Shown here: positions 3,024 to 50,647 of the stretch, in pieces
How positions within the stretch are numbered: the stretch's first letter is position 1
Layout of the letters: every line of letters starts with the position of its first letter
From: Neptuniibacter sp.
GTDB lineage: Bacteria; Pseudomonadota; Gammaproteobacteria; Pseudomonadales; Balneatricaceae
Assembly (NCBI GenBank): GCA_050789425.1
Contig: JAILXS010000003.1
Location: 162,417 to 226,416, forward strand
DNA: 64,000 bases
Direction: 5' to 3'
Translations under genes and position numbers: made by a program
The notes under the pieces: generated by a model
Databases searched by the model: none
What the model saw: the letters and a program-made list of their open reading frames with translations, nothing else
Told to the model about the DNA's origin: nothing

Positions 3024-3413
3024 ATGCAGCAGCTTAAGTCTCCAGCCCTTTATCTTTTAAATAATGCAGAGATCGATGAGGATCATCTCTCTTTTGTAGA
3101 AATCACCGAACAACTTAAACAGGCCGGTTCTGAAGAGTTTAAGAAACTTTTCAATACTCTCGTTGTTCATACTGAAAGGCATTTTTACAGAGAGGAACTT
3201 CTCATAGAGCAATTTAATTACCCCGGTAAAAATGAACATTGCGGTGAACATAATCGCGTGTTGGGGGAATTGAGGCAGTTAAATGAGCGGGTTCAGAAAG
3301 GCCGACTCGCCATGGCAAGATCCTATATAAATGAACGTGTTGAAGAGTGGTTGCATCAACATATAACCAATATGGATGCGGCATTGGTCAAGTATATAGA
3401 GGACCATTCATGA
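3024..3413 (+). CDS. Bacteriohemerythrin-like protein
   Basis: 129 aa with the di-iron ligand pattern: DEDHLSFVE, HTERHFYREE, HCGEHNRV, WLHQHITNMD. Confidence 0.75.
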   Translation: MQQLKSPALYLLNNAEIDEDHLSFVEITEQLKQAGSEEFKKLFNTLVVHTERHFYREELLIEQFNYPGKNEHCGEHNRVLGELRQLNERVQKGRLAMARSYINERVEEWLHQHITNMDAALVKYIEDHS

Positions 3414-3667
3414 GTGCCGTGTTACAGCATATCAAACAGCTGGAAGATGGCTTAAAAGCGCTGATCACTCTCAAGGAACAGCCAGTTGAAGGTAGTTGGA
3501 TTATGGAGGTTGAATTGAATTATCAATCACATTCAGTTGGTTCAACCAGCTTTACATTGAATGGCTATTCAGAAGAAGAGGCTCAGGCCTTAGTTAAAAG
3601 CTTGAATAAAAATCATTACATTATGAAAGAGATTGACCATTTTCTGTCGGGTGACTGGGGTGAATAG
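3410..3667 (+). CDS. Hypothetical protein, 85 aa, translationally coupled to the hemerythrin (ATGA overlap)
   Basis: The internal ATG of ORF 3347..3667 overlaps the hemerythrin stop. No family recognised. Confidence 0.5.
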   Translation: MSAVLQHIKQLEDGLKALITLKEQPVEGSWIMEVELNYQSHSVGSTSFTLNGYSEEEAQALVKSLNKNHYIMKEIDHFLSGDWGE

Positions 3668-3671
3668 TATT

Positions 3672-3687
3672 TGTCGCAAAGTTTACA
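3672..3687. promoter_or_regulatory. NifA-type UAS (TGTCGCAAAGTTTACA)
   Basis: Exact TGT-N10-ACA about 110 bp upstream of the sigma54 promoter at 3795. Confidence 0.65.
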
Positions 3688-3794
3688 TAACGGAAAAAAA
3701 AGGTAATGGAGTAAAACTGACAAAAAGTTCTGAATTTATTACATGAAGAGCTGAAATTTCCTGCCAGTTCTTTATAAATCAATGGATTAGATTT

Positions 3795-3810
3795 GGGTAT
3801 GCATATTGCA
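3795..3810 (+). promoter_or_regulatory. Sigma54 promoter (GGGTAT-GCATA-TTGCA)
   Basis: GG at 3796-3797 and GC at 3808-3809, canonical spacing, with TTGCA at -12. It ends 55 nt upstream of the ATG at 3865. Confidence 0.7.
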
Positions 3811-3864
3811 CTTAGCTAATAAAAACCCGCTTATGTGGTTAATTATGAACTCTGGAGTCTAATC

Positions 3865-4422
3865 ATGTTATTTGACACTTATAAAGAAAAAGGCCTGCTT
3901 TTTAACGTCAATTTTATCGAGCCAACTGATACTGAGCTGCAAGCCTACCGTGGAGAGCTGATTCTTATTGAAGGTGAAATTGGTGATGATAAAGGTCACG
4001 CAAAACCTCCAGTTGAAGTGATGCGTGGTGCGGTTATGTTGGCGGATGAAAAAATAAAAATGCTGGTAGGTGCTGTAGATACCATTGCATCAATTCCTGT
4101 ATTGGTTGAGAAGTATAAGGCTGATTTTGATGCGGGTATGTCTGCCCTGCTTTATGTGGTTGACCTGGAAGATTCAGTTATTACAGAAATTGAAGGTTAT
4201 AGTTTTACTTTGATTCCAATGTCACAAGGACTGCCATGGAACGAGACAATGGAAGAGCTGGCTATGGAAAAAAGTGATTTTAAAGGTCAGACGCCAGGTA
4301 ACAAGCTGGTAACCATGTATGAAGAGTTAAAGAGCTATAAACCTAAGTTTGAGACTGTAACGCTTGAGCAGGCTCTCTCTATGGCGACTGATACTGTTCG
4401 TGAAGGCTGGGGTGCAGTTTAA
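3865..4422 (+). CDS. Hypothetical protein, 185 aa, putatively NifA/sigma54-dependent and monocistronic
   Basis: The ATG at 3865 has a GGAG RBS (the ORF track starts at 3835). The protein is soluble and acidic. No family recognised. It is followed by a strong terminator. Confidence 0.7.
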   Translation: MLFDTYKEKGLLFNVNFIEPTDTELQAYRGELILIEGEIGDDKGHAKPPVEVMRGAVMLADEKIKMLVGAVDTIASIPVLVEKYKADFDAGMSALLYVVDLEDSVITEIEGYSFTLIPMSQGLPWNETMEELAMEKSDFKGQTPGNKLVTMYEELKSYKPKFETVTLEQALSMATDTVREGWGAV

Positions 4423-4476
4423 GCCTTTTCCTGGTAGGAACCTCACTCACTGACTACTGGGATAATAAGGCACCAT

Positions 4477-4512
4477 AAAGCCCGCTTTGTTGTAGCAAAG
4501 CGGGCTTTTTTT
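4477..4512 (+). terminator. Rho-independent terminator
   Basis: AAAGCCCGCTTTG-ttgtag-CAAAGCGGGCTTT followed by a T-run. Confidence 0.85.
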
Positions 4513-4587
4513 CTGGAGTATAAGGATGTGTTTGAAATATAGTTGCTGTCATTACCGATTAAATATTTCCTGCTGAACAATAATTCT

Positions 4588-4845
4588 ATGAGATGGCAAC
4601 TGGCTTTTTTTTCATTGCTTAGTCTGATTGTGATGACTGGGATCGACTATATGATTGGTCCTGCAGCCGAATTTTTAAATGCATACTCAGCTTTATTGCG
4701 TTTATTCAGTGGCGAACCTGAAATACCTGATTCATTAGTAGCGCAGCTAATAGGCGAGACGGGTGAGTTGCTGGTGGTTGTATTGATAAATATGTTAATC
4801 GGGGGCTTGCTGACAGTGCTTTACCGAATGCTGTACAGGCGTTAA
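4588..4845 (+). CDS. Possible small membrane protein (about 85 aa)
   Basis: Two hydrophobic segments (WQLAFFSLLSLIVMTGI, LLVVVLINMLIGGLLTVL). There is no clear RBS or promoter, so it may not be expressed. Confidence 0.3.
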   Translation: MRWQLAFFSLLSLIVMTGIDYMIGPAAEFLNAYSALLRLFSGEPEIPDSLVAQLIGETGELLVVVLINMLIGGLLTVLYRMLYRR

Positions 4846-10820: not shown

Positions 10821-11294
10821 TTATTCTTCCCAACTGTTACTGTCCATTGGGCTGAATGTATTACCTAATAACCGTTTTTCCCGTTCAATGGCTTTGGCAA
10901 GCCAGCTGCCGGGCCCTTGCTTGATCTCTTTCTGTAATGCCTTTATTAGCTCATGTACAGGGGCTTCTTCGGTAACTCGGATCGGCTGTATACCTGTGGT
11001 GATTAACCGTCTTACTGCGGAAGCACCGCAGGCATAGCTGTATACTGCTGCGCAGCCGTCGAGATAATCGATTCTTGCTTGTAGCTTATCCTCGCCATGC
11101 TCCATATCGTCACAAAACTCTGCAACAGATAGCAGGTCTGCCTGAGTCATGGATATTCCATAGATCTGTATGGTCTGGGCGTAACCAAAATGCTGATTCA
11201 CGGTCTTGCCATCACTGGTTGAAAACGCCACACGTAACATGTAATTTTCATTGGATTCCCGGACGACATTCAGGTGACGTGACACCGGAACCAT
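10821..11294 (-). CDS. nifX: FeMo-cofactor carrier NifX
   Basis: The ATG at 11294 lies directly after the nifN TGA, giving 157 aa. It reads RVAFSTSDGKTVNQHFG...YACGASAVRRL. Confidence 0.9.
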   Translation of the reverse strand: MVPVSRHLNVVRESNENYMLRVAFSTSDGKTVNQHFGYAQTIQIYGISMTQADLLSVAEFCDDMEHGEDKLQARIDYLDGCAAVYSYACGASAVRRLITTGIQPIRVTEEAPVHELIKALQKEIKQGPGSWLAKAIEREKRLLGNTFSPMDSNSWEE

Positions 11295-11295
11295 A

Positions 11296-12681
11296 TCAAC
11301 CTCCCTGCTGGTGTCGGATGTCGGCTCTCTCTTCTTCCCGTTTCTGAGAATAAACGGAGTAATAAGGAGAGATCTCTTCATGTTGGGCTACTCGCATATT
11401 GGCAATATCAAACAATGCCTGTTGAATGCCACGGTAACCTACCCAAACTCGGTTAAATCCCCCCAGGTGGTCATACTGCGGAAATCCTGCCCTCAGATGA
11501 GGTAGATGTAGCCTCTCTGAGCACTCAGCCAGATGGCTGTTTCCGATCACAAATTCGGCTTTGTTTTCCAATGCCAGTTGCTCAAGATCCTGAAGGTCAC
11601 CTTTCTGCACAGTTTCCAATGCAATCTGCTTAAGAGCGGGTCCTTTATCGGGACTGACAGCAGCAACAACTTCACCGCCCATGCTGACGACAAGGTCATG
11701 CATTGCGAGAAGCAGATCAGGATCGGCGGCTATAGCAACACGCAGTTGCCCCAGCATAAAGTGGGTGTCGAGCATGGCGTCCTGAAGCTGACGGCGCTGC
11801 CTGCGCCAGCGGTTAGGGACCGGCATGCCCGACAGATCAGACAGAGTCATAAGCCAGCGATCGACCTCTGTCATGGTGTGGAGGTGGGGGAAAGCTGTGT
11901 AGGGCACACCGGTTTTATCGTTTAATTTTTTTGCGGCGGTTTCCAGAGAGCTACCAACCACCAGGGTCATACGGCTCTCTGCAGCAATACTGAGTTCATC
12001 CATGGTCAGTCCACCTGTTGTAAGCGAACTGAACTCTTCATTGGGAAGGTGCCCATCAAGTGAGCGTGAAAGGTCCGGAATCAGTAATGGTCTTAGCCCA
12101 AAACTCTCAACGGTATCGATTACAAATTCCAAATCACCTGGAGTCAGGTGGCTGCCACATAAAATATTGACCTGTTTTGCACGAAGCCCAGACCTTTCAC
12201 TGGGTTCAATCAGCTGATCTATGATAGCGGCGGTAGCTGAAGCATAACCTGTTTCAAAGCAGCCGCTGAAATCAGGCACATTCACTTTCACTACAGCGAC
12301 TTTTTCATGTTCCGGGTAACGCTTACGGAACTCATGAATTGCGAGATTCATATCACAACCCTGAGTTTCAGCGAGGCCTGTAGAGCAAACTCCTATGATT
12401 GCTGGTTTCTGCTTTTCTGAGATAGTTTTAAGGGCCTCAACCACATTCTCGTCAGCGCCCATCACAGAGCTGACCTGATCCATGGCGGTTGTCTGAAGCG
12501 GGATCGGCTCTCTGAAATGACGAACAAAGAATACTTTTGCAAAGGCGGTACAACCCTGGCTGCCATGCATCAGCGGCATTGCGTTACTGAAGCCAAGAAA
12601 AGCCAGTGTGGCGCCCATGGTTTGACTGGCTTTGAGCGGATTAACTGAGAGTGCCTTTTTACGTTTATTTAAGGTAGCCAT
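11296..12681 (-). CDS. nifN: FeMo-cofactor scaffold subunit NifN
   Basis: 461 aa with [32 protein letters not shown]. Confidence 0.95.
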
Positions 12682-20887: not shown

Positions 20888-21733
20888 ATGTACACAGAAT
20901 TGATTGAAGGCATTAAATCGGGAAAGATCGTGCCTTACTTGGGCCCTGGAGCACTGGCAGATGTCGTCAGTGTCAATGACAAATCCCCTATTCCAGCGGA
21001 TAGCGATAGTTTGATACTGGCTATGAATAATGGCCAGCCCATGGCGCCGCGTTTGATGTATGAGTTCCCGCGTGCAGCTATGAATCTGGAAAATAAAAAG
21101 GGTCGTAGTTTTATCACTCGTTTTATGAATGATACCTACCTGAATACAGAATGGACTGAAGGTAAGCTGTATAGCTGGCTGGCTGATCTAGATGCGCCAT
21201 ACGTTATTGATATAAACCGTGATACACAGATGATTACTCAGTACGCAAATCGTGAACATATTCTGATTCAGGGTTTATCAAGAGTAATGGGAACAGACTT
21301 CCGGTATAAGCTGTTTAAGTATAACGGTAAAAAGTATTCCGAGATCGAACTGAGTGAAGTGATGGCGGGTTTACCTATTCTGTTTAAACCCCATGGGTCT
21401 CCTGTGCCGGAAGCTAACTACATAGCATCAGATGCTGACTTTGTAGATTACATCACTGAACTGATGGGTGGTTTTGCCATTCCTGAATTCATGAAATTGT
21501 ATCGTCAAAATAAACAATACCTGTTTCTGGGAATGCGTTTTACGCGTGATACTCAGCGTATGGTTATGGGTGATATGGTTTATTCTGCTGATAAAAAGCA
21601 GACAGGTTGGGCCTTTATTGAAGAACCTACAGATAAAGAACGTCGTTTTCTTAAGCTTAAGAATGTGGAGATTATCGAGGAACCGTTGAGCAACTTCCTT
21701 GATGCTGCCTATGGGTTGGCTGAAACCGCTTGA
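20888..21733 (+). CDS. SIR2-like (SIR2_2-type) domain protein, 281 aa
   Basis: Motifs recalled from the SIR2_2 family are YLGPGA near the N-terminus, VIDINRD (cf. TNYD), LFKPHGS (cf. KLHGS) and YLFLGMRFTRD (cf. GYSxxD). The CDS itself is well supported. The family call needs a profile search. Confidence 0.6.
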   Translation: MYTELIEGIKSGKIVPYLGPGALADVVSVNDKSPIPADSDSLILAMNNGQPMAPRLMYEFPRAAMNLENKKGRSFITRFMNDTYLNTEWTEGKLYSWLADLDAPYVIDINRDTQMITQYANREHILIQGLSRVMGTDFRYKLFKYNGKKYSEIELSEVMAGLPILFKPHGSPVPEANYIASDADFVDYITELMGGFAIPEFMKLYRQNKQYLFLGMRFTRDTQRMVMGDMVYSADKKQTGWAFIEEPTDKERRFLKLKNVEIIEEPLSNFLDAAYGLAETA

Positions 21734-24019: not shown

Positions 24020-24388
24020 TCACGCGCGTTCATTTGTGCGTGCTGAAATCATCTTCAGGATCTTGCGGTTAGCCGCCAGATCCAATGCTGTAAAATCGTC
24101 CAGCGTTTTCAGAGATGGGTCTGCGCCCTCCTCCAGCAGCAGTTCAACCATCTCGGTTTTGCCTGCTGAAGCGCTGTAAATCAGAGCGGTTGCGCCACCC
24201 TCATTCTGATGATTGATATCAATGCCATGCTGTATCAGAAGAGCAGCTACTTCTCTGTCTTCGCGGTAGCAGGCAAACCACAGTGAATTGTTCCCTTCAT
24301 GGTTTATCTCATCGATATCAACACAAGGTAATAACTTAATAATCTCTACCAGGTCACCATCCAGTACTGATGTGATCAGCGGGGTCAT
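24020..24388 (-). CDS. Ankyrin-repeat protein, 122 aa
   Basis: About three ANK repeats (GNNSLWFACYRE..VAALLIQHGIDIN, GGATALIYSASAGKTEMVELLLEEGADP). Confidence 0.8.
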   Translation of the reverse strand: MTPLITSVLDGDLVEIIKLLPCVDIDEINHEGNNSLWFACYREDREVAALLIQHGIDINHQNEGGATALIYSASAGKTEMVELLLEEGADPSLKTLDDFTALDLAANRKILKMISARTNERA

Positions 24389-24750
24389 GAGAAGATCTCG
24401 CTTTTCTGAATTAAAACCTGCTGTTCCTCGGCGAAATCTTTAACTTTTAGAAACTTCTTCCAGGCAGTAAATCCACCCTTGACGCTAAAACAGTTCTGGA
24501 ACCCAAAGTCGGCAAACAACTTGGCCTTTTCAATGCTGGAATGTCCCAGATAACAGTAAACAATGATGTTTTTATCCTTCGGTGTACGTTTGATTAAAGC
24601 CATAGTGTTATGGTCGCTTAGATTAATGGCGTCCGGGTGGCGAGAGCTGATGTAATCACGTTGATCCCGAGTGTCCAGAATTAGTGCGCCTTTCGTGTTG
24701 ATAAGCTCTTCTGCTTCCTGAACGGTAATCTCTGTAATCTGTGACATCAT
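24385..24750 (-). CDS. Rhodanese-domain sulfurtransferase (RhdN-like)
   Basis: 121 aa with the active-site loop VYCYLGHSS. It has ATGA overlaps at both ends. Confidence 0.85.
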   Translation of the reverse strand: MMSQITEITVQEAEELINTKGALILDTRDQRDYISSRHPDAINLSDHNTMALIKRTPKDKNIIVYCYLGHSSIEKAKLFADFGFQNCFSVKGGFTAWKKFLKVKDFAEEQQVLIQKSEIFS

Positions 24751-26354
24751 TCCCCCCTCTTTAAGTGGTAATAACCGGATAGTTGTGTAATTCGGCTGTC
24801 TTTGATGGGTTCGCCTACGGCAAAGCCATATAGAGCCTGCAGGCTTTTATCTTCCAGCCCCAGAAGTTCGTGGATGGCATCATCAAAGAAGCAGCCAATA
24901 CCTGTTCCGCTGTAGCCCTGAGCTGTTGTTTGTAGATAGAGTTGTTGACCAAGCATGCCCGCTTCGAGATAAAGGTCGGAATAGCTACCTTGATCCAATT
25001 CGGAATAAAGGGCTGCGTATTCGCCCAAAAAGAACAAGGTAAAGCAGCTGTTTGCAGCGATAGCCTGATTGCAACTTAACTGCCCTACTGCTTTACGGGT
25101 ATTGCTGGATTTTATTAGCCAGCTGTTTGGGATGCCTTCAAGGCTTGTTTCACTCCAGGGCTGCCAGCGTTGAATGCAGTTCTGAATAAGTGTTGCGCCT
25201 GAATCTGATCTTGGGATTAGATAAATTCCTGGTTCAAGCCCCTCTACAGAATGTACAAAGCACAGAATATGAATAGCGGTGCTGTCTGGAATAAGCTGGG
25301 TGCTTCCTGGTATTAAGGTACTGATCAGTTGTTCAAAGTCAGCAAGGTTGTATGTGGCAGTCCCATTATAGGCCTGCCCGCTTCGCCGACTAAGAATGAT
25401 GTCAGCAGCATTCTGGCTGGTATCGGTACCGGTAGGTTTGTTATTTCCGATACATGTTAGAGATGGTGTAGTTGTCAGCTCATTTGCTTCTGCGGTTTCC
25501 TGAGCATTTGGCCAGTTAATTACAAATTCACTGCCAAGATTATTTGCGGTTCCTTGCCATTCGCCAGAAAATACCAGAGGAAAAATAGAATCTTCCTTGT
25601 CTAACTGGGTATCCGCACGACTCACACGGTAGATCCATTCAGGGTACTCTTTACCCTGGCCTTTAAAACCTGAATCTGGGAGTCCACAGAGGCTGCGCAA
25701 TTGTAGTTTGGACATGGTGACAGGTGATAAACGCCAGCCCAGCATACCCGCCACCGCATGGCACTGTGACAACTGGTGACCTGCATCAAGCCAGCAGTAG
25801 CGTAACGCTCGCTCTCCGTACTTCCATAGCTCTCGCTGGATAACGCTTGTCTGAATAATGTGAATATCAAATGTGTTCAGAATATCCAGCTCACGACGCA
25901 ATTCGAGCTGATGGCTGTATACATTGTAATGATAGATACCTGCATTGCAGAACATCGTGTGTGGTAATAGCAGGTAAAGCTCACCTGGATGAAGGTTACC
26001 ACTAGAAGGTACTGCTCTTAATGACCAGCTGTCAGGGCCATAGGTTTTCCATGCAGTCAGCCCCGCGCAAAACTGAAGGAAAAACGAAATATTTTCCAGT
26101 GTCAGCATTTCTGGAATGTGTTGGCCGTTCATCAGCTCAGTAAAAAAATAGGGTTTATGATCGCCTCGGCTAAATACTTTGAGGTCGATGGTTTTTGTGC
26201 CTTCGTACTGACGAAACGGATCAGGTTGATCATCCCAATCAAGGGTTTCAGGACCCGGGGCGTAGCCTTTGAAATGATGTTTAGTCAGTTCATGGTAATT
26301 ATCCATAAGCTCACTCAAACTTCTCTCTATTGGGTACGTTTGTGCAGATGTCAT
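24747..26354 (-). CDS. Tandem nitroreductase-fold protein (SagB/ThcOx-type dehydrogenase family)
   Basis: About 535 aa with an N-terminal YHELTKH signature and two nitroreductase-like halves. The ATG at 26354 directly follows the nifQ stop. Confidence 0.7.
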   Translation of the reverse strand: MTSAQTYPIERSLSELMDNYHELTKHHFKGYAPGPETLDWDDQPDPFRQYEGTKTIDLKVFSRGDHKPYFFTELMNGQHIPEMLTLENISFFLQFCAGLTAWKTYGPDSWSLRAVPSSGNLHPGELYLLLPHTMFCNAGIYHYNVYSHQLELRRELDILNTFDIHIIQTSVIQRELWKYGERALRYCWLDAGHQLSQCHAVAGMLGWRLSPVTMSKLQLRSLCGLPDSGFKGQGKEYPEWIYRVSRADTQLDKEDSIFPLVFSGEWQGTANNLGSEFVINWPNAQETAEANELTTTPSLTCIGNNKPTGTDTSQNAADIILSRRSGQAYNGTATYNLADFEQLISTLIPGSTQLIPDSTAIHILCFVHSVEGLEPGIYLIPRSDSGATLIQNCIQRWQPWSETSLEGIPNSWLIKSSNTRKAVGQLSCNQAIAANSCFTLFFLGEYAALYSELDQGSYSDLYLEAGMLGQQLYLQTTAQGYSGTGIGCFFDDAIHELLGLEDKSLQALYGFAVGEPIKDSRITQLSGYYHLKRGE

Positions 26355-26356
26355 TC

Positions 26357-26953
26357 TCACTCCTCCGGCCCAAAGCAATCATCATAAGCTGCGCACTGTT
26401 CGCAACTTGGAGCTCTGCACACATAACTTCCTCCAGACTCGCAAAGTTGTTTGTAAAGGAATCTTTTCCATTTCATATCTTTGTGATTCAAAGCTTTGAG
26501 GTCTGGGTATACCAGTTGTATAAAATCTGAGAGCCAGCTTCTGTCAGGGAAACCTAAATCCCTCCATAAGTGATCGCCACCCATGCAGCCAGTTGCAACG
26601 ATGATAGAGATTTCAGCTTCAAATAATTGATTACGATGGGTTTCTAACAATTCATAAAGCTCCTGAATTTCATCTGCGCGCATACGTAGTAGCTCGTCGC
26701 GGAGCATGCTGCGTTCAATATCCACGGGGTTTGGGGCGAAACTTTGTAAAAACCAGGGTGTCATGTCAGGAAAGCGCCGATCAAAAAACTGCTGGAAGCG
26801 TTCTTCACCCAGGCCCATATGCAGGGGTAATACACCAGTTGATTCCCTGGGTGCAATGATAAGTCTGGCAATATACTGGTCGATCAGACGTTCTCGACTG
26901 GCACCTAGTAATTGCATATATCTGTTATCATGGTCAGTCGCCATCATCAACAT
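26357..26953 (-). CDS. nifQ: NifQ (Mo processing for FeMo-co)
   Basis: C-terminal C-x4-C-x2-C-x5-C motif (CRAPSCEQCAAYDDC). Confidence 0.9.
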   Translation of the reverse strand: MLMMATDHDNRYMQLLGASRERLIDQYIARLIIAPRESTGVLPLHMGLGEERFQQFFDRRFPDMTPWFLQSFAPNPVDIERSMLRDELLRMRADEIQELYELLETHRNQLFEAEISIIVATGCMGGDHLWRDLGFPDRSWLSDFIQLVYPDLKALNHKDMKWKRFLYKQLCESGGSYVCRAPSCEQCAAYDDCFGPEE

Positions 26954-29916: not shown

Positions 29917-31512
29917 CTAAATTTTCTTAAGTTCAATGTTCATAGTCTGGATGCGATAAGCTATTTGGCGTGGCGTCATATTAAGTAAACGAGCGGCTTT
30001 AGCCTGAACCCACCCTGTCTGCTCGAGAGCAGCGATAACTTTGCTTCGCTCATCCATCTCCGAACCAGAATCGTTTTGAAATTCACTTTCTTCATCAAAT
30101 CTGACGGTGCTGGATTCCATGGGTGATTGGATTGATGACGGCGGAGGCATTGCATCTGCCGTAGTATTGAAGCTGAAATCGTCCTCTTTTATACATCCTT
30201 CATCTGCCATTATGGATGCTCTTTCTAATGTGTTTTCAAGTTCGCGAACATTACCGGGCCAGCTATAGGTCATCAGCTTTCGTACCGCCCGATCATTGAT
30301 TGTTAATTTTCTACCCTGGGCTTTACCTATTTTTCCGAGTAAAAAGTTAACAAGTTCAGGTACGTCCTCGATGCGTTCACGTAATGAAGGCAGATTGATC
30401 GGCATAATATTGAGCCGGTAGTATAGATCTTCCCTGAAGTTGCCCTCGCGAACCTCTTTCTCCAGATCCCGATTGGTTGCAGCAACGACACGTACTTGAA
30501 CGGAGATAGTTTTGTTACCCCCTACCCTTTCAAACTCACCTTCCTGCAGAACACGAAGAAGTTTGGCCTGAAACATCGGTGAAATTTCACCAATTTCATC
30601 GAGGAATAGCGTGCCTTTATCTGCTTGTTCAAAACGCCCCTGTCTTGAACGGGTGGCTCCGGTAAAAGCTCCTTTCTCATGACCAAAAAGTTCTGATTCG
30701 AGAAGGTTCTCCGGTAAAGCTGCACAGTTAAGGCGGACGAAACTGTTATGTGCTCTTGGCGAATTGTAGTGTATTGCGCTGGCAACCAGTTCTTTACCTG
30801 TACCTGATTCACCACGGACTAAAACGGTGGTGTCCCACTTTGAAACCCGTCGAATCTGATCAAACATTTTAACCATTAATGGAGTATGTCCAACCATGAG
30901 TTTCTCGAAGCCAAACTTCCCGCGTACTGTTCGCCGGAGCTCATCGCGCTCGCTTTCGAGTTCCTGGTGCTGGTTTTTTACTTCACTCATCAGGCGGATT
31001 AATTGAGCCAGAAGGTTGGCTATCATCACCAGATACCGACACTCTTCTGCTAGGAATCGCATAGGGTCAGATACCGGTTGCGCTGCAAGGACCCCTGCAA
31101 CTTCACCGTTACTGTCTTTAACGGGTACGCCGATAAAAGGGAGATTCCATTCAAATAACTCCAGTCGGTCCAAAAACCGTTGTTCATTATCAAGGTTAGG
31201 TAAAACAATGGATTGATTGGATTTTAAGATGGTACCAACTAATCCTTCACCAGCCTGGTACTTGGCGGCATCTTTGGCTTTCTGGATGTCATCGTTATGA
31301 CTATGAATGGCGCTAATATATAAGTGTTCCTGTTCATAATCTTTTAAAGCGATGAGTCCATTTTTCATACCCCCTTCATGATGCAGGATCTCCAGTACTT
31401 CATCCATGCTGGGTTTGAGGTCCAGAGAACGTGTCAGCGTCCATGAGATCTTATCTAAAATACAAAGCTGGCGTTCAAGAAGTTCGGTACGGGTAATAGC
31501 TGTATCAGACAT
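29917..31512 (-). CDS. nifA: Sigma54-dependent activator NifA
   Basis: It has a GAF domain, an AAA+ domain (GESGTGKE, ESELFGHEKGAFTGA) and a C-terminal HTH. The ATG at 31512 has an AGGAGG RBS and lies 10 nt after the nifL stop. Confidence 0.95.
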   Translation of the reverse strand: MSDTAITRTELLERQLCILDKISWTLTRSLDLKPSMDEVLEILHHEGGMKNGLIALKDYEQEHLYISAIHSHNDDIQKAKDAAKYQAGEGLVGTILKSNQSIVLPNLDNEQRFLDRLELFEWNLPFIGVPVKDSNGEVAGVLAAQPVSDPMRFLAEECRYLVMIANLLAQLIRLMSEVKNQHQELESERDELRRTVRGKFGFEKLMVGHTPLMVKMFDQIRRVSKWDTTVLVRGESGTGKELVASAIHYNSPRAHNSFVRLNCAALPENLLESELFGHEKGAFTGATRSRQGRFEQADKGTLFLDEIGEISPMFQAKLLRVLQEGEFERVGGNKTISVQVRVVAATNRDLEKEVREGNFREDLYYRLNIMPINLPSLRERIEDVPELVNFLLGKIGKAQGRKLTINDRAVRKLMTYSWPGNVRELENTLERASIMADEGCIKEDDFSFNTTADAMPPPSSIQSPMESSTVRFDEESEFQNDSGSEMDERSKVIAALEQTGWVQAKAARLLNMTPRQIAYRIQTMNIELKKI

Positions 31513-31522
31513 GTCACCCCTC

Positions 31523-33136
<1,614 letters not shown>

Positions 33137-33277: not shown

Positions 33278-33293
33278 TGTTGCAATCCCTACA
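33278..33293. promoter_or_regulatory. NifA-type UAS (TGTTGCAATCCCTACA)
   Basis: Exact TGT-N10-ACA in the nifL/rnfA divergent region. Confidence 0.65.
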
Positions 33294-33315
33294 AATTAAA
33301 GGAGGTCGGTTTTAG

Positions 33316-33331
33316 TGTAGGATTTTCAACA
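33316..33331. promoter_or_regulatory. NifA-type UAS (TGTAGGATTTTCAACA)
   Basis: Exact TGT-N10-ACA. Confidence 0.65.
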
Positions 33332-33332
33332 T

Positions 33333-33348
33333 TGTCATTATTCAAACA
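33333..33348. promoter_or_regulatory. NifA-type UAS (TGTCATTATTCAAACA)
   Basis: Exact TGT-N10-ACA, but only about 45 bp from the rnf promoter. Confidence 0.5.
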
Positions 33349-47249: not shown

Positions 47250-48569
47250 TCAGATTAAACGCTGAAGAAACTCAGCCAGATGCATAGTATTACGATTAGA
47301 ATACTGTTTGATTTGAGATTTGCAGGAGAAGCCATTTGCTATAATTACAGCGTTTTCATTGTTTTCCAGCACTTCTTTTAGTGTCAGATTAAACATCTTT
47401 TCAGAATCAGGTTGGTGTTCAACTTCATATGCAAAGCTGCCTCCACCCCCGCAACAGCTTGAATCTATAAATTCAAAATTCAAGTCGGGAATGAGTTTTA
47501 AAATCTTCCGGACTGATTTCATCGCGCCTACGGCTTTCTGGTGGCAGTGTCCATGGATCAGCAGGTGATCCTGAGTTGGTGTAAACCTAAGATTAAAACG
47601 GCCTGTACTTATCTCGCGGGCAAGGAATTCCTCAAAAAGAAAGGTGTTGTCACTCAATTTTTGTGACTCTTTCCCTAAACCTAGCAATTTATACTCATCT
47701 CTAATCATAAGTGTGGATGATGGTTCCAGCCCTAGAACAGGAATAGATTGCTCAACATAGGGTTGTAATTGCGAAAGTAGTTGAGAGGCTTTATCTTTGC
47801 TTGCCTCAATTAAACCTGCAGAGAACCATGTCCGCCCCTCAATTATTGCAGTTTTCTGGCCAATCAGTCGCACGTCATAACCAGCCTTATCGAGTATGTC
47901 GTAAGCTGCTGCTATAACTTGAGGTGAAAAGCCCTTGGTGAAGCTATCTGCTAATAAGACAATTGTTTTGTCGGTTATTTCTGGGGCTGTTAGTAGTAAA
48001 TCTTTTGTAATTTGGCTAGCGCTTGGTAAAGGTAATTGCACTTTTGTGCTGATACCCAGGCCTTTCTCTATAATTCTGGATATAAAGCCGGATTTGTTTC
48101 GGGTCTTAAATAAAAACCTTAGCAACTTAGGGTATTCAAGTAATTTGGGAAGGTTAGCGAAAAGAATATCTCTAGTAAGAAATGGACGATCTGAAAGGCT
48201 TTTAGCCAGATATTCTGCTCGTATTGCGGAAATATCAAGCCCGGTTTCACACTCCCTCTTACAGCCTTTGCAGCCGATGCAGGCAGACATGGACTCATCT
48301 AATAAACGTTTTTCTTCTTCTGTGATTTCGCCGTTGAGTGAACGTTTGAGAAGTCGGCTTCTGCCGCCTGGTGAGAAAGCTGCATCTTGGCGGACTCTGA
48401 AACTTGGGCACATTACGCTTTTATTTACAGGCCTTAAGCAAACCATGCTATTTATACAGACGGCTACGGCTTTAGCAAAGTTTCCGCCTGTTTTGGGTAT
48501 GTCCGCGTAAGCATCACCCTGACCTTCGTTTTCATAGTCTGACCAGTCTAACTTAGGTTCCATCATCAA
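47250..48569 (-). CDS. (Fe-S)-binding oxidoreductase with CCG domains (GlpC / heterodisulfide-reductase-like)
   Basis: 439 aa with two ferredoxin-like Cys motifs (CINSMVC..CPS, CIGCKGCKREC) and a C-terminal CCGGGGSF. Confidence 0.7.
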   Translation of the reverse strand: MMMEPKLDWSDYENEGQGDAYADIPKTGGNFAKAVAVCINSMVCLRPVNKSVMCPSFRVRQDAAFSPGGRSRLLKRSLNGEITEEEKRLLDESMSACIGCKGCKRECETGLDISAIRAEYLAKSLSDRPFLTRDILFANLPKLLEYPKLLRFLFKTRNKSGFISRIIEKGLGISTKVQLPLPSASQITKDLLLTAPEITDKTIVLLADSFTKGFSPQVIAAAYDILDKAGYDVRLIGQKTAIIEGRTWFSAGLIEASKDKASQLLSQLQPYVEQSIPVLGLEPSSTLMIRDEYKLLGLGKESQKLSDNTFLFEEFLAREISTGRFNLRFTPTQDHLLIHGHCHQKAVGAMKSVRKILKLIPDLNFEFIDSSCCGGGGSFAYEVEHQPDSEKMFNLTLKEVLENNENAVIIANGFSCKSQIKQYSNRNTMHLAEFLQRLI

Positions 48570-48810: not shown

Positions 48811-49707
48811 TCAGGCTTTATTTTGGTAAAGATTGATAGCTAAAGAGAGGATTCTTTCGTTTTCATATAGTTTTTTATACCAGTCACCACGAATACCAGA
48901 AAGTCCATAGTATGCTCCAGCAATCTGGCCGCAGACAGCAGCTGTTGTATCTGCATCGTCACCTAGATTTGCTGCTAATAGAACAGCGTCGTTGAAGTTG
49001 TCTGTTTTGTAAAAACACCATAAGGCTGCTTCTAAGCATTCTATGACATAGCCACTGCCTTTGATCTGGTCTTTAGTTTTTTTGAGGAAATCCAGATTGG
49101 CAATACGAGCAACTTTTTTGCTTTTTGGGGTGTAATCCAGACGCATTAGTTCTGATCTGTGTGTGCCAGATAAAATCTGTTTTATTAGTGATCCGAGATA
49201 ACAGCATGCATCCAGACATTCAGGTGCGGAATGAGTTGTTCGTGATGAGTCCATAATGTAGTGATAATAATCGGGGGCCGTATAGTAAAATAATATGACC
49301 GGGGCTAGGCGCATTAAGGAGCCGTTTCCTGCTGACATAGGGTCGGTATCACCGCAGAATGGCTTTTTGCTTGATTGGTATGCATGTAATGCATTGGCTA
49401 CGGTGGTGCCAATGTCAAAACACTTTCCGGTGCTGCTGTTTTTGCCTTGCTTCCACCATTGGAGGTATCGATCCATTTGGTCTGCTGCATCAAATCCTTT
49501 GCGATCAATTAAGGATTCAGCAAGGCAGATGGCCATTGACGTGTCATCGGTCCACTGTCCTGGTTTAAGGAAAAACGGCCCACCACCCACCATGTCAGTA
49601 ATCGGCTCAAAACTGCCTCGATGTTTAAACTCAAGGGTGGTTCCAATAGCATCACCCACAGCCAATCCAATCAGGCATCCTTGAAATCTATCTTGTAATT
49701 CCATCAT
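48811..49707 (-). CDS. ADP-ribosylglycohydrolase family protein (candidate DraG-like)
   Basis: 298 aa with GLAVGDAIGTTLEF, QWTDDTSM and GDDADTTAAVCGQIAGAYYG, the ARH metal-binding motifs. It is divergent from draT. Confidence 0.8.
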   Translation of the reverse strand: MMELQDRFQGCLIGLAVGDAIGTTLEFKHRGSFEPITDMVGGGPFFLKPGQWTDDTSMAICLAESLIDRKGFDAADQMDRYLQWWKQGKNSSTGKCFDIGTTVANALHAYQSSKKPFCGDTDPMSAGNGSLMRLAPVILFYYTAPDYYHYIMDSSRTTHSAPECLDACCYLGSLIKQILSGTHRSELMRLDYTPKSKKVARIANLDFLKKTKDQIKGSGYVIECLEAALWCFYKTDNFNDAVLLAANLGDDADTTAAVCGQIAGAYYGLSGIRGDWYKKLYENERILSLAINLYQNKA

Positions 49708-49774
49708 TTTGCACCAGTAAAATTTGTTGGAAATTATTCAGTTTTTGACTTGAAGCAGCCTGCATTGGTTGCAA

Positions 49775-50647
49775 ATGATGTTATTTTCAACCCGTATAAA
49801 TTATGGCCAATCAATAATGCCTATAGATTTGCTTTCAGCAGAGACTGAATTACCTGGATCAGTACACTTGCCAATCAATAGGTGCAATTACCCTGCCACT
49901 ATTTTGGGTAGTCATGCCTTTCAGGAACACCCTGAACCAATACATATAGATTATGTTCAGGCTTTTCATCGTTATCTATTTGAACGACTTGATGCCATTG
50001 AAAGTGCTGTTGAGAGGGCCTTGTTGTTCGATGAGTACATGCAGGTTTCTTTTTTGTTGGGGCATCCTGATCAAATTGGACTTGATGAAAACAGCCAAAA
50101 AGTTAAGCGTCATAAGTTTGACTATAAGCGATTGATACGGGGCTGGATGTTTGATTCAAATGGTCGCGAAGGTGCGGTTTTAAAAGGCTGGGTGGAAACA
50201 AGGTTTGGCTTATGTGCCCGCAGTCATAATGGGCCACTTAGGAATTCTGGGTCAGGAAACTACCAACAGTATCTGTCTGATCGAAGTCAGGGGTTGTATA
50301 ACACTAACGGTATAGAGAGTCAGTTGGATCTTCTTTATACATACTGTCAATATGAGCTCAAAAGGCAAGATATGGAGAAGTATTTAACTCTTTATCGAGG
50401 CACGAACGAACTGAAGCAATATGAACATTTGTTTGCTGATAATAATAAGCAGCGTATCGTGCTGTTAAATAATTTGAATTCATTTAGCGATAAAAAGGAA
50501 TATTGCGACAACTTTGGTGACCATGTGTTTAGGTGCAAGGTTCCTTTTTGCAAACTCTTCTTTTTTCCTGGATTGCTGCCTGGTCTTTTGAAATGCGAGA
50601 ATGAACACCTTGTCATTGGAGGTTTGTATTCAATCAAAGTTCTTTGA
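49775..50647 (+). CDS. draT: NAD+--dinitrogen-reductase ADP-D-ribosyltransferase DraT
   Basis: Motifs I recall from Rhodospirillum/Azospirillum DraT are HPEPIHI, GAVLKGWVETRFGL, QLDLLYTYCQ, LTLYRGTN, LNNLNSFS and EHLVIGG. The start is uncertain (49769 TTG, 49775 ATG or 49817 ATG). Confidence 0.85.
   Translation: MMLFSTRINYGQSIMPIDLLSAETELPGSVHLPINRCNYPATILGSHAFQEHPEPIHIDYVQAFHRYLFERLDAIESAVERALLFDEYMQVSFLLGHPDQIGLDENSQKVKRHKFDYKRLIRGWMFDSNGREGAVLKGWVETRFGLCARSHNGPLRNSGSGNYQQYLSDRSQGLYNTNGIESQLDLLYTYCQYELKRQDMEKYLTLYRGTNELKQYEHLFADNNKQRIVLLNNLNSFSDKKEYCDNFGDHVFRCKVPFCKLFFFPGLLPGLLKCENEHLVIGGLYSIKVL

Follow-up and report, generated by a model that had tools for sequence, protein, structure and literature searches.

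Does a short open reading frame (ORF) that belongs to no named protein family, and that stands behind what looks like a nitrogen-fixation promoter of its own, take part in nitrogen fixation, and if so in what capacity? The question is raised by a gene of 185 aa at positions 3865 to 4422 (plus strand) of a 64,000-nt stretch of a Neptuniibacter sp. contig; we call this gene the target and the full 64,000-nt stretch the window. An initial annotation had read the locus as a self-contained NifA/sigma-54 transcription unit for an orphan protein. Our comparative analysis indicates that the target is probably a genuine NifA-regulon gene forming a unit by itself, and that its soluble, acidic, cysteine-free product belongs to an unnamed family found in nif contexts. 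The elements of the unit are these:

3672 to 3687, strand not set: NifA upstream activator sequence (UAS) TGTCGCAAAGTTTACA, an exact TGT-N10-ACA, 124 nt upstream of the -24 GG
3777 to 3789, plus strand: integration host factor (IHF)-type site AATCAATGGATTA, an exact match to the consensus WATCAANNNNTTR, between UAS and promoter
3795 to 3810, plus strand: sigma-54 -24/-12 promoter GGGTATGCATATTGCA, GG at 3796-97 and GC at 3808-09, an exact GG-N10-GC
3854 to 3857, plus strand: ribosome-binding site (RBS) GGAG, 7 nt before the ATG at 3865
3865 to 4422, plus strand: target coding sequence, 185 aa, stop at 4420-22, in an unnamed family of about 186 aa
4477 to 4515, plus strand: rho-independent terminator, 14-bp stem AAAGCCCGCTTTG/CAAAGCGGGCTTT with 7 G-C pairs, 4-nt loop and T-run

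All the parts listed by the initial annotation are there: the exact TGT-N10-ACA at 3672, the -24/-12 promoter ending in TTGCA (3806-10) with exact GG-N10-GC spacing, the GGAG RBS, and the strong rho-independent terminator that it had placed at 4477-4512, whose 14-bp stem and T-run lie in a 3' region that folds at -40.9 kcal/mol (z = -4.2 against shuffled sequence). It had overlooked the IHF-type site, which lies 7 nt upstream of the -24 GG. A longer ORF opens at GTG 3835, and it is not the gene, because the homologues all begin at the methionine of 3865. When the window is aligned with four Amphritea loci, conservation forms islands at the UAS, the promoter and the RBS; the UAS is kept as TTGTC..ACA in the four Amphritea loci, ACTCTGGAGT, which holds the RBS, is invariant throughout, and the promoter is homologous to TGGTATGCATTTTGCT in a Thiodiazotropha/Thiohalomonadaceae locus (L015) and to AGGTAYGCTAATTGCA in Amphritea. 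A full NifA-type layout is supported by these motifs, with a predicted transcription start near 3821. We estimate from background rates that chance alone would place about 0.04 correctly ordered and spaced UAS-promoter pairs before any of the approximately 60 genes in the window.

The mechanism at the target is very probably the textbook one, as far as its motifs can tell. NifA would bind the UAS at 3672-3687, an IHF-type bend at 3777-3789 would aid the looping of DNA that brings NifA to sigma-54 RNA polymerase, contact with the polymerase would be made at 3795-3810, and transcription would proceed from about 3821 to the hairpin at 4477-4508. The sequence elements, the nif linkage, and the conservation of both the family and its promoter layout are observations; we infer NifA dependence, the use of IHF, the transcript ends and, further below, a biochemical role.

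Control by NifA, as the initial annotation proposed it, presupposes a nifA gene. Since a nifL-nifA pair (29917-33127) lies in the window, the activator that had been assumed is in fact encoded 26 kb away:

29917 to 31587, minus strand: nifA, matched by TIGR01817 at 676 bits against a cutoff of 529; the putative trans-activator
31523 to 33127, just upstream of nifA: nifL, matched by TIGR02938 at 576 bits

The window as a whole is a complete gammaproteobacterial nif region. In addition to nifL-nifA, nifB and nifQ as its regulators and cofactor genes, it holds the structural genes nifHDK-nifT-nifY, the assembly genes (a gene for an LRV protein, nifENX, a gene for a NifX-associated protein, fdxN, iscA-nifU-nifS, nifV, nifM and clpX), and the electron supply and transport genes rnf, fldA and modA. 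Counted across the window and compared with expectation (given with its spread), TGT-N10-ACA occurs 32 times against 19.2 +/- 4.2, GG-N8-TTGCW 39 times against 21.9 +/- 5.1, and the IHF consensus 15 times against 4.5 +/- 2.1, and the UAS, sigma-54 and IHF motifs cluster ahead of nif operons. A UAS together with GG-N10-GC precedes modA, iscA-nifUS, nifE, nifH, a pnfA-like gene, nifB, rnfA, fldA, nifV and a GlpC-like gene. Judged by motifs, about eleven control regions in the window, that of the target among them, share this design.

A promoter of the Klebsiella nifH type is built from a UAS, an IHF site and -24/-12 elements. The target promoter shares this three-part layout, with comparable spacing; it differs in having GGG for TGG, a single UAS, and an IHF-like site that abuts the -24 element. 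The distance from UAS to GG is 56-133 nt at the nifE, nifH, fldA and GlpC-like promoters and 124 nt at the target, which falls in the range of about 80-150 nt taken for a NifA-dependent promoter. An IHF site precedes the -24 element by 6-30 nt at the target, nifE, nifH, pnfA-like, fldA, nifV and GlpC-like promoters (sites at 3777, 14190, 20612, 20802, 38947, 47109 and 48677, with 8 others in the window). This closeness to the promoter is unusual, and it is seen at all seven of these putative NifA promoters.

The term orphan, which the protein had been given, does not hold. Homologues were searched at 90% clustering, with E <= 1e-3 for the window protein as query, which yielded 240; the homologue from Azoarcus indigens, searched separately, gave 839 matches. 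An exhaustive search against 50%-identity representatives found 128 clusters, nearly all of 185-190 aa and matching end to end. All of the homologues are named "hypothetical" or "uncharacterized" in their sources. Over 28 sequences that represent several orders, column identity averages 74%. G30, W125, K136, K140 and G183 are invariant across the family, and R29, G37, P49, D138 and K147 nearly so. Gammaproteobacterial carriers include Amphritea, Thalassolituus, Oceanobacter, Marinobacterium, Ketobacter, Marinagarivorans, Candidatus Thiodiazotropha, Sedimenticola, Thiomargarita, a Beggiatoa relative, Tolumonas, Imhoffiella, Methylotetracoccus and Plasticicumulans; Zetaproteobacteria are also among the carriers, as are the betaproteobacterial Azoarcus, Azovibrio, Pseudothauera, Gallionellaceae and Hydrogenophilaceae. 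A tblastn search of plasmids with the target gave no match, and a nifH search of E. coli genomes gave none. That the ORF might code for no protein at all is a reading suggested by its failure to match any curated family. It is effectively refuted by conservation: full-length homologues number in the hundreds, are uniform in length and share conserved motifs. The RBS is conserved as well, and the structure prediction is of high confidence (see below).

How widely is the promoter kept? The comparative set comprised 80 homologue loci from species-representative genomes, 76 of them usable for upstream analysis, in which an exact TGT-N10-ACA was sought within 350 nt of the homologue; 1448 random 350-nt windows from the same loci served as controls. 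The motif is present in 58 of the 76 loci, compared to 101 of the 1448 control windows (7%). In 56 loci it is joined by GG-N9-TGC at -35 to -120 from the ATG, and in 32 of these 56 the distance from UAS to promoter is 88-91 nt. The family consensus for the UAS is TGTCG......cgACA, mostly at -140 to -159 from the ATG, and that for the -24/-12 element is TGGCAcG....TTGCt, mostly at -60 to -69; given as TGGCAcGaataTTGCt, it lies at about -55 to -60. The dedicated NifA-type control claimed for the window copy thus has its counterpart upstream of homologues in 56-58 of 76 loci, and the comparative support for NifA/sigma-54 control of the family, as read from motifs, is strong.

The same architecture is kept in isolated loci, where there is no nif gene within 10 kb and the flanking genes are unrelated. 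Homologues with the promoter architecture intact are flanked by genes for a solute-binding protein and Dus (L007), stand beside cyclic di-GMP signalling genes (L024, L067), or lie between DAHP synthase and porin genes (L076, Azovibrio restrictus). In Azoarcus the homologue lies between clpA and rraA, with the sigma-54 promoter kept and the exact UAS absent (L072, L073). Distant members of the family, at 24-28% identity, have the sigma-54 promoters TGGAACCGTTTTTGCA and TGGCGTGCTTCTTGCT. In the locus of one distant homologue (L085, positions ~780-850) the order is unusual: the sigma-54 promoter TGGCCCCGGTTTTGCA comes first and the exact UAS, TGTCGCATTGCCGACA, follows it, some 40 nt ahead of the ATG.

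The setting just upstream of the target needs to be considered before its independence is accepted:

3024 to 3667, plus strand: hemerythrin gene (129 aa) joined through an ATGA overlap to an 85-aa ORF (orf85)

The 85-aa ORF matched no family. In 8 loci, including those of Amphritea, Marinagarivorans and Ketobacter, it is kept beside the target homologue. A sigma-54-like element, GGCTTATTAATTGCT, occurs at 2976-2990 before the hemerythrin gene with no exact UAS nearby, and a second such element points in the opposite direction at 2949-2963.

Several features speak against a self-contained, NifA-controlled unit. The -24 element reads GGG where the consensus has TGG (the base at -26 is G), there is only one UAS, its 124-nt spacing is unlike the family-typical 88-91 nt, and the IHF-like site is abnormally near the -24 element. 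About 18 of the 76 homologous loci have no exact UAS. Finally, no terminator was found between the hemerythrin-orf85 pair (stop at 3667) and the target, so read-through transcripts may occur. In Marinagarivorans (L009) the target homologue follows directly after hemerythrin and orf85 with no promoter of its own. One could argue from GGCTTATTAATTGCT and the missing terminator, and from four loci (L005, L072, L073, L075) with a sigma-54 promoter and no exact TGT-N10-ACA, that the target answers to sigma-54 through another enhancer-binding protein such as NtrC, or is transcribed mainly by read-through from hemerythrin-orf85, and so is a general nitrogen-stress gene. We regard this as quite improbable: 58 of 76 loci keep the exact NifA-type UAS in its position, the target unit matches the window's other NifA promoters in every part, and no NtrC-type site was noticed by eye in the sequence read, where no pattern search for such sites was run.

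The stand-alone arrangement, defined by the absence of a co-directional neighbour within 120 nt on either side, is also the commonest one, seen in about 55 of 90 loci, so that the form in the window is the usual form. The terminator is a feature of the window and not of the family, because a strict scan found one after only 12 of the 80 homologues. Just after the terminator is a small ORF (4543-4845, plus strand, ATG at 4591) with a hydrophobic N-terminus, probably outside the unit because it has no relative in any of the 80 related loci.

The read runs that contain window sequence (X1-X12) represent low-depth metagenome contigs with adapter ends. Two runs cover the homologue from a Ctena orbiculata symbiont (L012). 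One (X13) resembles genomic DNA; the other (X14) is unclear in kind and erratic in depth. At L012 positions 10839-11506, X14 has word depths of more than 1000 at two short nifE pieces and of about 12 over the target homologue, with about 0 in between. The peaks on nifE may come from conserved segments that a second abundant organism also carries.

What kind of protein does the unit encode? It bears out the initial description of a 185-aa acidic soluble product at 3865 to 4422: 20.6 kDa, pI 4.39, no cysteine and no hydrophobic segment. As had been said, it falls in no recognised nif or naf family. The target protein has zero matches to the Pfam, NCBIfam, PADLOC and PHROGs models; hidden Markov models (HMMs) for known nif accessory proteins (NifW, NifZ, NifT, NifX/NafY, NifQ, NifO, CowN, DUF269 and others) gave nothing significant; and 41 family members searched against Pfam returned only scattered noise at E <= 1. 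Profile and structure searches, of the kind that had been proposed, revealed no family and no fold match. The family profile against all PDB sequences had a best E of 0.03. AlphaFold2 modelled the target with a mean predicted local distance difference test score (pLDDT) of 87.9 and a predicted template modelling score (pTM) of 0.83 from 28 sequences, and with a pLDDT of 94.0 and a pTM of 0.88 from 41. Both models agree in secondary structure, with a seven-stranded beta region that includes one long helix, followed by a helical C-terminal part that bears the most conserved residues. With a significant E or a TM score of at least 0.5 taken to define a fold match, Foldseek found none in PDB for either model, the best hit for both being the McrC chain of the McrBC complex (E 5e-3 to 1e-2, TM 0.30-0.36). 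A search of the target against BFVD structures had a best E of 0.06. Because the model, profile and Foldseek searches gave no match, the family is unnamed and its fold has no detectable solved relative.

Two leads from these searches were followed and dropped. A defence or phage origin, prompted by the weak structural match to McrC, was rejected for want of any PADLOC or PHROGs match. A relationship to GNAT proteins was suggested by a partial profile match to 3jvn at E = 0.03, and was rejected since Foldseek gave it no support. Cysteine ligands such as those of a FeSII (Shethna) ferredoxin or an Fe-S carrier are absent, there being no cysteine in the target and no conserved cysteine column in the alignments. 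With no cysteine and no cofactor motif, the target itself is unlikely to carry a metal cluster or to transfer electrons.

The genomic company kept by the family offers the remaining evidence on its function. Core nif genes were counted within 10 kb of the homologue and are found in 35 of 80 loci; if rnf, nifQ, nifM or the promoter pair is counted as well, 71 of 80 loci are nif-linked. Most of the remaining nine either sit on truncated contigs or show a sigma-54 promoter with no exact UAS. By this measure, the family is all but confined to nif contexts; its carriers are Gamma-, Beta- and Zetaproteobacteria. Its position varies. The homologue follows hemerythrin and orf85 in Amphritea, as in the window; is immediately upstream of nifEN in Thiodiazotropha and Thiohalomonadaceae (L011-L013, L015, L019); lies between a nifY-like gene and nifH in Thalassolituus and Oceanobacter; and comes after nifHDKTY-LRV in Zetaproteobacteria. 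Distant members either come after a NifS-like gene, with genes for Nitro_FeMo-Co, NifU and ferredoxin close by, or precede TOBE and NafY-like genes. All ORFs within 4 kb of a target homologue were clustered for 90 loci, and the recurrent neighbours are:

NifX/Y-like protein: 25 of 90 loci
Hemerythrin: 17 of 90 loci
PnfA-like protein (SIR2_2): 14 of 90 loci
GlpC/HdrD-like CCG Fe-S protein: 12 of 90 loci
Glutaredoxin: 11 of 90 loci
BolA: 9 of 90 loci

Linkage is tightest with the GlpC-like gene, the most frequent operon partner, which runs in the same direction across gaps of 0-52 nt. Three loci (L021, L026, L027) have the operon order target, GlpC-like, glutaredoxin, BolA, SagB-like, and three others (L035, L040, L056) have target, GlpC-like, NifX/Y-like. 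In Thalassolituus the order is glutaredoxin, BolA, NifX/Y-like, target (L049), and L045 differs from this only by an additional unassigned ORF in front of the target. A GlpC-like gene is present in the window too, far from the target:

47250 to 48569, minus strand: GlpC/HdrD-like gene, 439 aa, with 4Fe-4S dicluster and CCG domains

It is preceded by its own UAS (48774), IHF site (48677) and sigma-54 promoter (48645). We know of no role assigned to a GlpC/HdrD-like protein in nitrogen fixation.

Because the GlpC-like gene is the commonest operon partner, often followed by glutaredoxin and BolA, we favour an accessory role alongside a set of thiol and Fe-S proteins. We suggest tentatively, from composition and neighbours, that the target is a cofactor-less adaptor or chaperone which, with a set of proteins for thiol redox and Fe-S trafficking, keeps nitrogenase or its clusters in working order. 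It would act after translation, in oxygen-respiring diazotrophs, with a partner set probably consisting of the NifA-controlled GlpC/HdrD-like Fe-S protein, often with glutaredoxin and BolA. A bolder form of the proposal, which we consider speculative, is that the family founds an undescribed fold and serves as a cofactor-less partner of the HdrD/GlpC-like protein with glutaredoxin and BolA, together forming a thiol-redox or cluster-maintenance module that oxygen-respiring Proteobacteria of sea and soil would need for efficient N2 fixation, and that the Klebsiella minimal nif set would lack. The proposed role has weak points of its own: it is drawn solely from gene neighbourhood, the GlpC-like link is seen in 12 of 90 loci, and other recurrent neighbours (NifX/Y-like in 25, hemerythrin in 17, PnfA-like in 14, and mod/TOBE genes) point elsewhere.

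Where the most frequent of these neighbours point is toward the iron-molybdenum cofactor (FeMo-co). The target could be an accessory in molybdenum (Mo) or FeMo-co trafficking, working with NifX/NifY/NafY carriers and with the Mo-binding TOBE/Mop and ModA proteins in place of a thiol/Fe-S module. NifX/Y-like genes are directly adjacent to the homologue in four loci (L023, L048, L049, L068), the placement immediately upstream of nifEN described above would suit such a function, TOBE and a DIMCO_N/Nitro_FeMo-Co gene come after one distant member, Pseudothauera has the order modE-modABC-modD-TOBE-target, and in the window modA lies 2.6 kb from the target. However, NifX/Y-like genes abound in every nif cluster, so that their background rate is high, in many loci the surroundings contain no gene for Mo or FeMo-co, and the target has no cluster of cysteine or histidine residues and no known motif for binding Mo or a metal cluster. 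We hold a Mo or FeMo-co role to be rather unlikely.

The hemerythrin and PnfA-like neighbours raise another alternative, about equally doubtful: that the target belongs with them to a layer of oxygen protection or activity control that modulates nitrogenase under microaerobic conditions. The carriers named above are, we presume, oxygen-respiring or microaerophilic Proteobacteria, which would fit. Hemerythrin, within 4 kb in 17 of 90 loci, is directly upstream in the window and in Amphritea, and the Marinagarivorans homologue shares the run of hemerythrin and orf85 with no separate promoter. PnfA-like (SIR2_2) neighbours occur in 14 loci, and a pnfA mutant of Pseudomonas stutzeri has lower microaerobic nitrogenase activity (PMC2820453). 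Against this, the association is one of proximity only, the target has no redox cofactor motif, and it is unrelated to proteins of the FeSII (Shethna) type, which need cysteine ligands where the target has none.

The adaptor proposal can also be judged by comparison with systems already described. The classical nif accessory proteins (NifW, NifZ, NifT, NifX/NifY/NafY, NifQ, the NifX-associated protein and nif-specific ferredoxins) are small, NifA-controlled, and mostly non-enzymatic helpers in the maturation of nitrogenase. The target resembles them in being small, putatively NifA-controlled, and encoded in a nif cluster; it differs in that the HMMs for these families match other genes of the window and not the target, whose fold has no counterpart in PDB. 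CowN is a small, soluble, stand-alone NifA-dependent protein that protects nitrogenase from carbon monoxide, acting on its function and not its synthesis. It is about half the size of the target and not a relative by any test run, and can be taken as a functional analogue.

Among described systems, the one most similar in kind is P. stutzeri A1501 PnfA (PST1325; PMC2820453). PnfA is dependent on NifA and sigma-54, with its own UAS and -24/-12 promoter among the nif genes, is reported only in diazotrophs, and has no known biochemistry; it is a protein of 31.7 kDa with a SIR2_2-like domain, encoded divergently from nifH (PMC2820453). The target, by contrast, is of 20.6 kDa with no recognisable domain, and the sequences are unrelated, BLASTP of the target against the PnfA-like protein of the window giving E = 6.4. 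That protein is encoded as follows:

20888 to 21733, plus strand: PnfA-like gene, 281 aa, SIR2_2 domain, divergent from nifH

The gene fits A1501 PnfA in size, position and regulation (PMC2820453), and has a pair of UAS, an IHF site, and a GG-N10-GC of its own. Published NifA regulons contain other hypothetical genes: in Azoarcus BH72, azo3080, induced 8-fold on N2 and NifA-dependent 5.4-fold, and azo0536, beside a hemerythrin (PMC3916325), and in P. stutzeri A1501, PST1344, PST1324 and PST1323 (PMC2820453). These five could be homologous to the target; no homology is claimed. The synteny in Azoarcus indigens, with clpA and rraA as neighbours, does not match azo3080.

The window contains some further genes and sites beside those discussed. 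Divergently placed next to each other are a gene for a DraG-like protein (48811-49707, minus strand), which scores 364 bits with a model for Tri1-type ADP-ribosylarginine hydrolases, above its 163 bits with DraG and below both cutoffs, and an ORF of 292 aa (49769-50647, plus strand) with no NCBIfam or PADLOC match. In 6 related loci the latter is found together with the PnfA-like gene. DraT was not recognised among the window ORFs scanned. Downstream of nifQ, at 24020-26378 on the minus strand, are genes for a 543-aa SagB-like protein of the nitroreductase family, a rhodanese, and an ankyrin-repeat protein, a trio that recurs near target homologues in Thalassolituus and Oceanobacter loci. Three copies of TGT-N10-ACA within 70 nt (33278-33348) occupy the intergenic region between the divergent nifL and rnfA, and may serve both promoters.

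The target is probably a new, unnamed accessory gene of the NifA regulon. The nif clusters of aerobic Proteobacteria contain many conserved hypothetical genes that are absent from the Klebsiella minimal engineering set; this family is unusual in how broadly it is conserved, in the portability of its promoter, and in having no solved structural relative. Because its promoter is kept even away from nif genes, its conservation spans three classes, and its structure is confidently predicted and unmatched, the target makes a clean, testable candidate for a nitrogenase helper. Should a knockout have no phenotype, it would be one more dispensable member of the regulon. If the family matters for activity when oxygen is present, it would bear on the marine heterotrophic and symbiotic diazotrophs that carry it, such as Thalassolituus, Thiodiazotropha and Sedimenticola. 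If a module of this family with the GlpC-like protein, or a role with oxygen, proves true, it would be relevant to moving nitrogen fixation into aerobic hosts.

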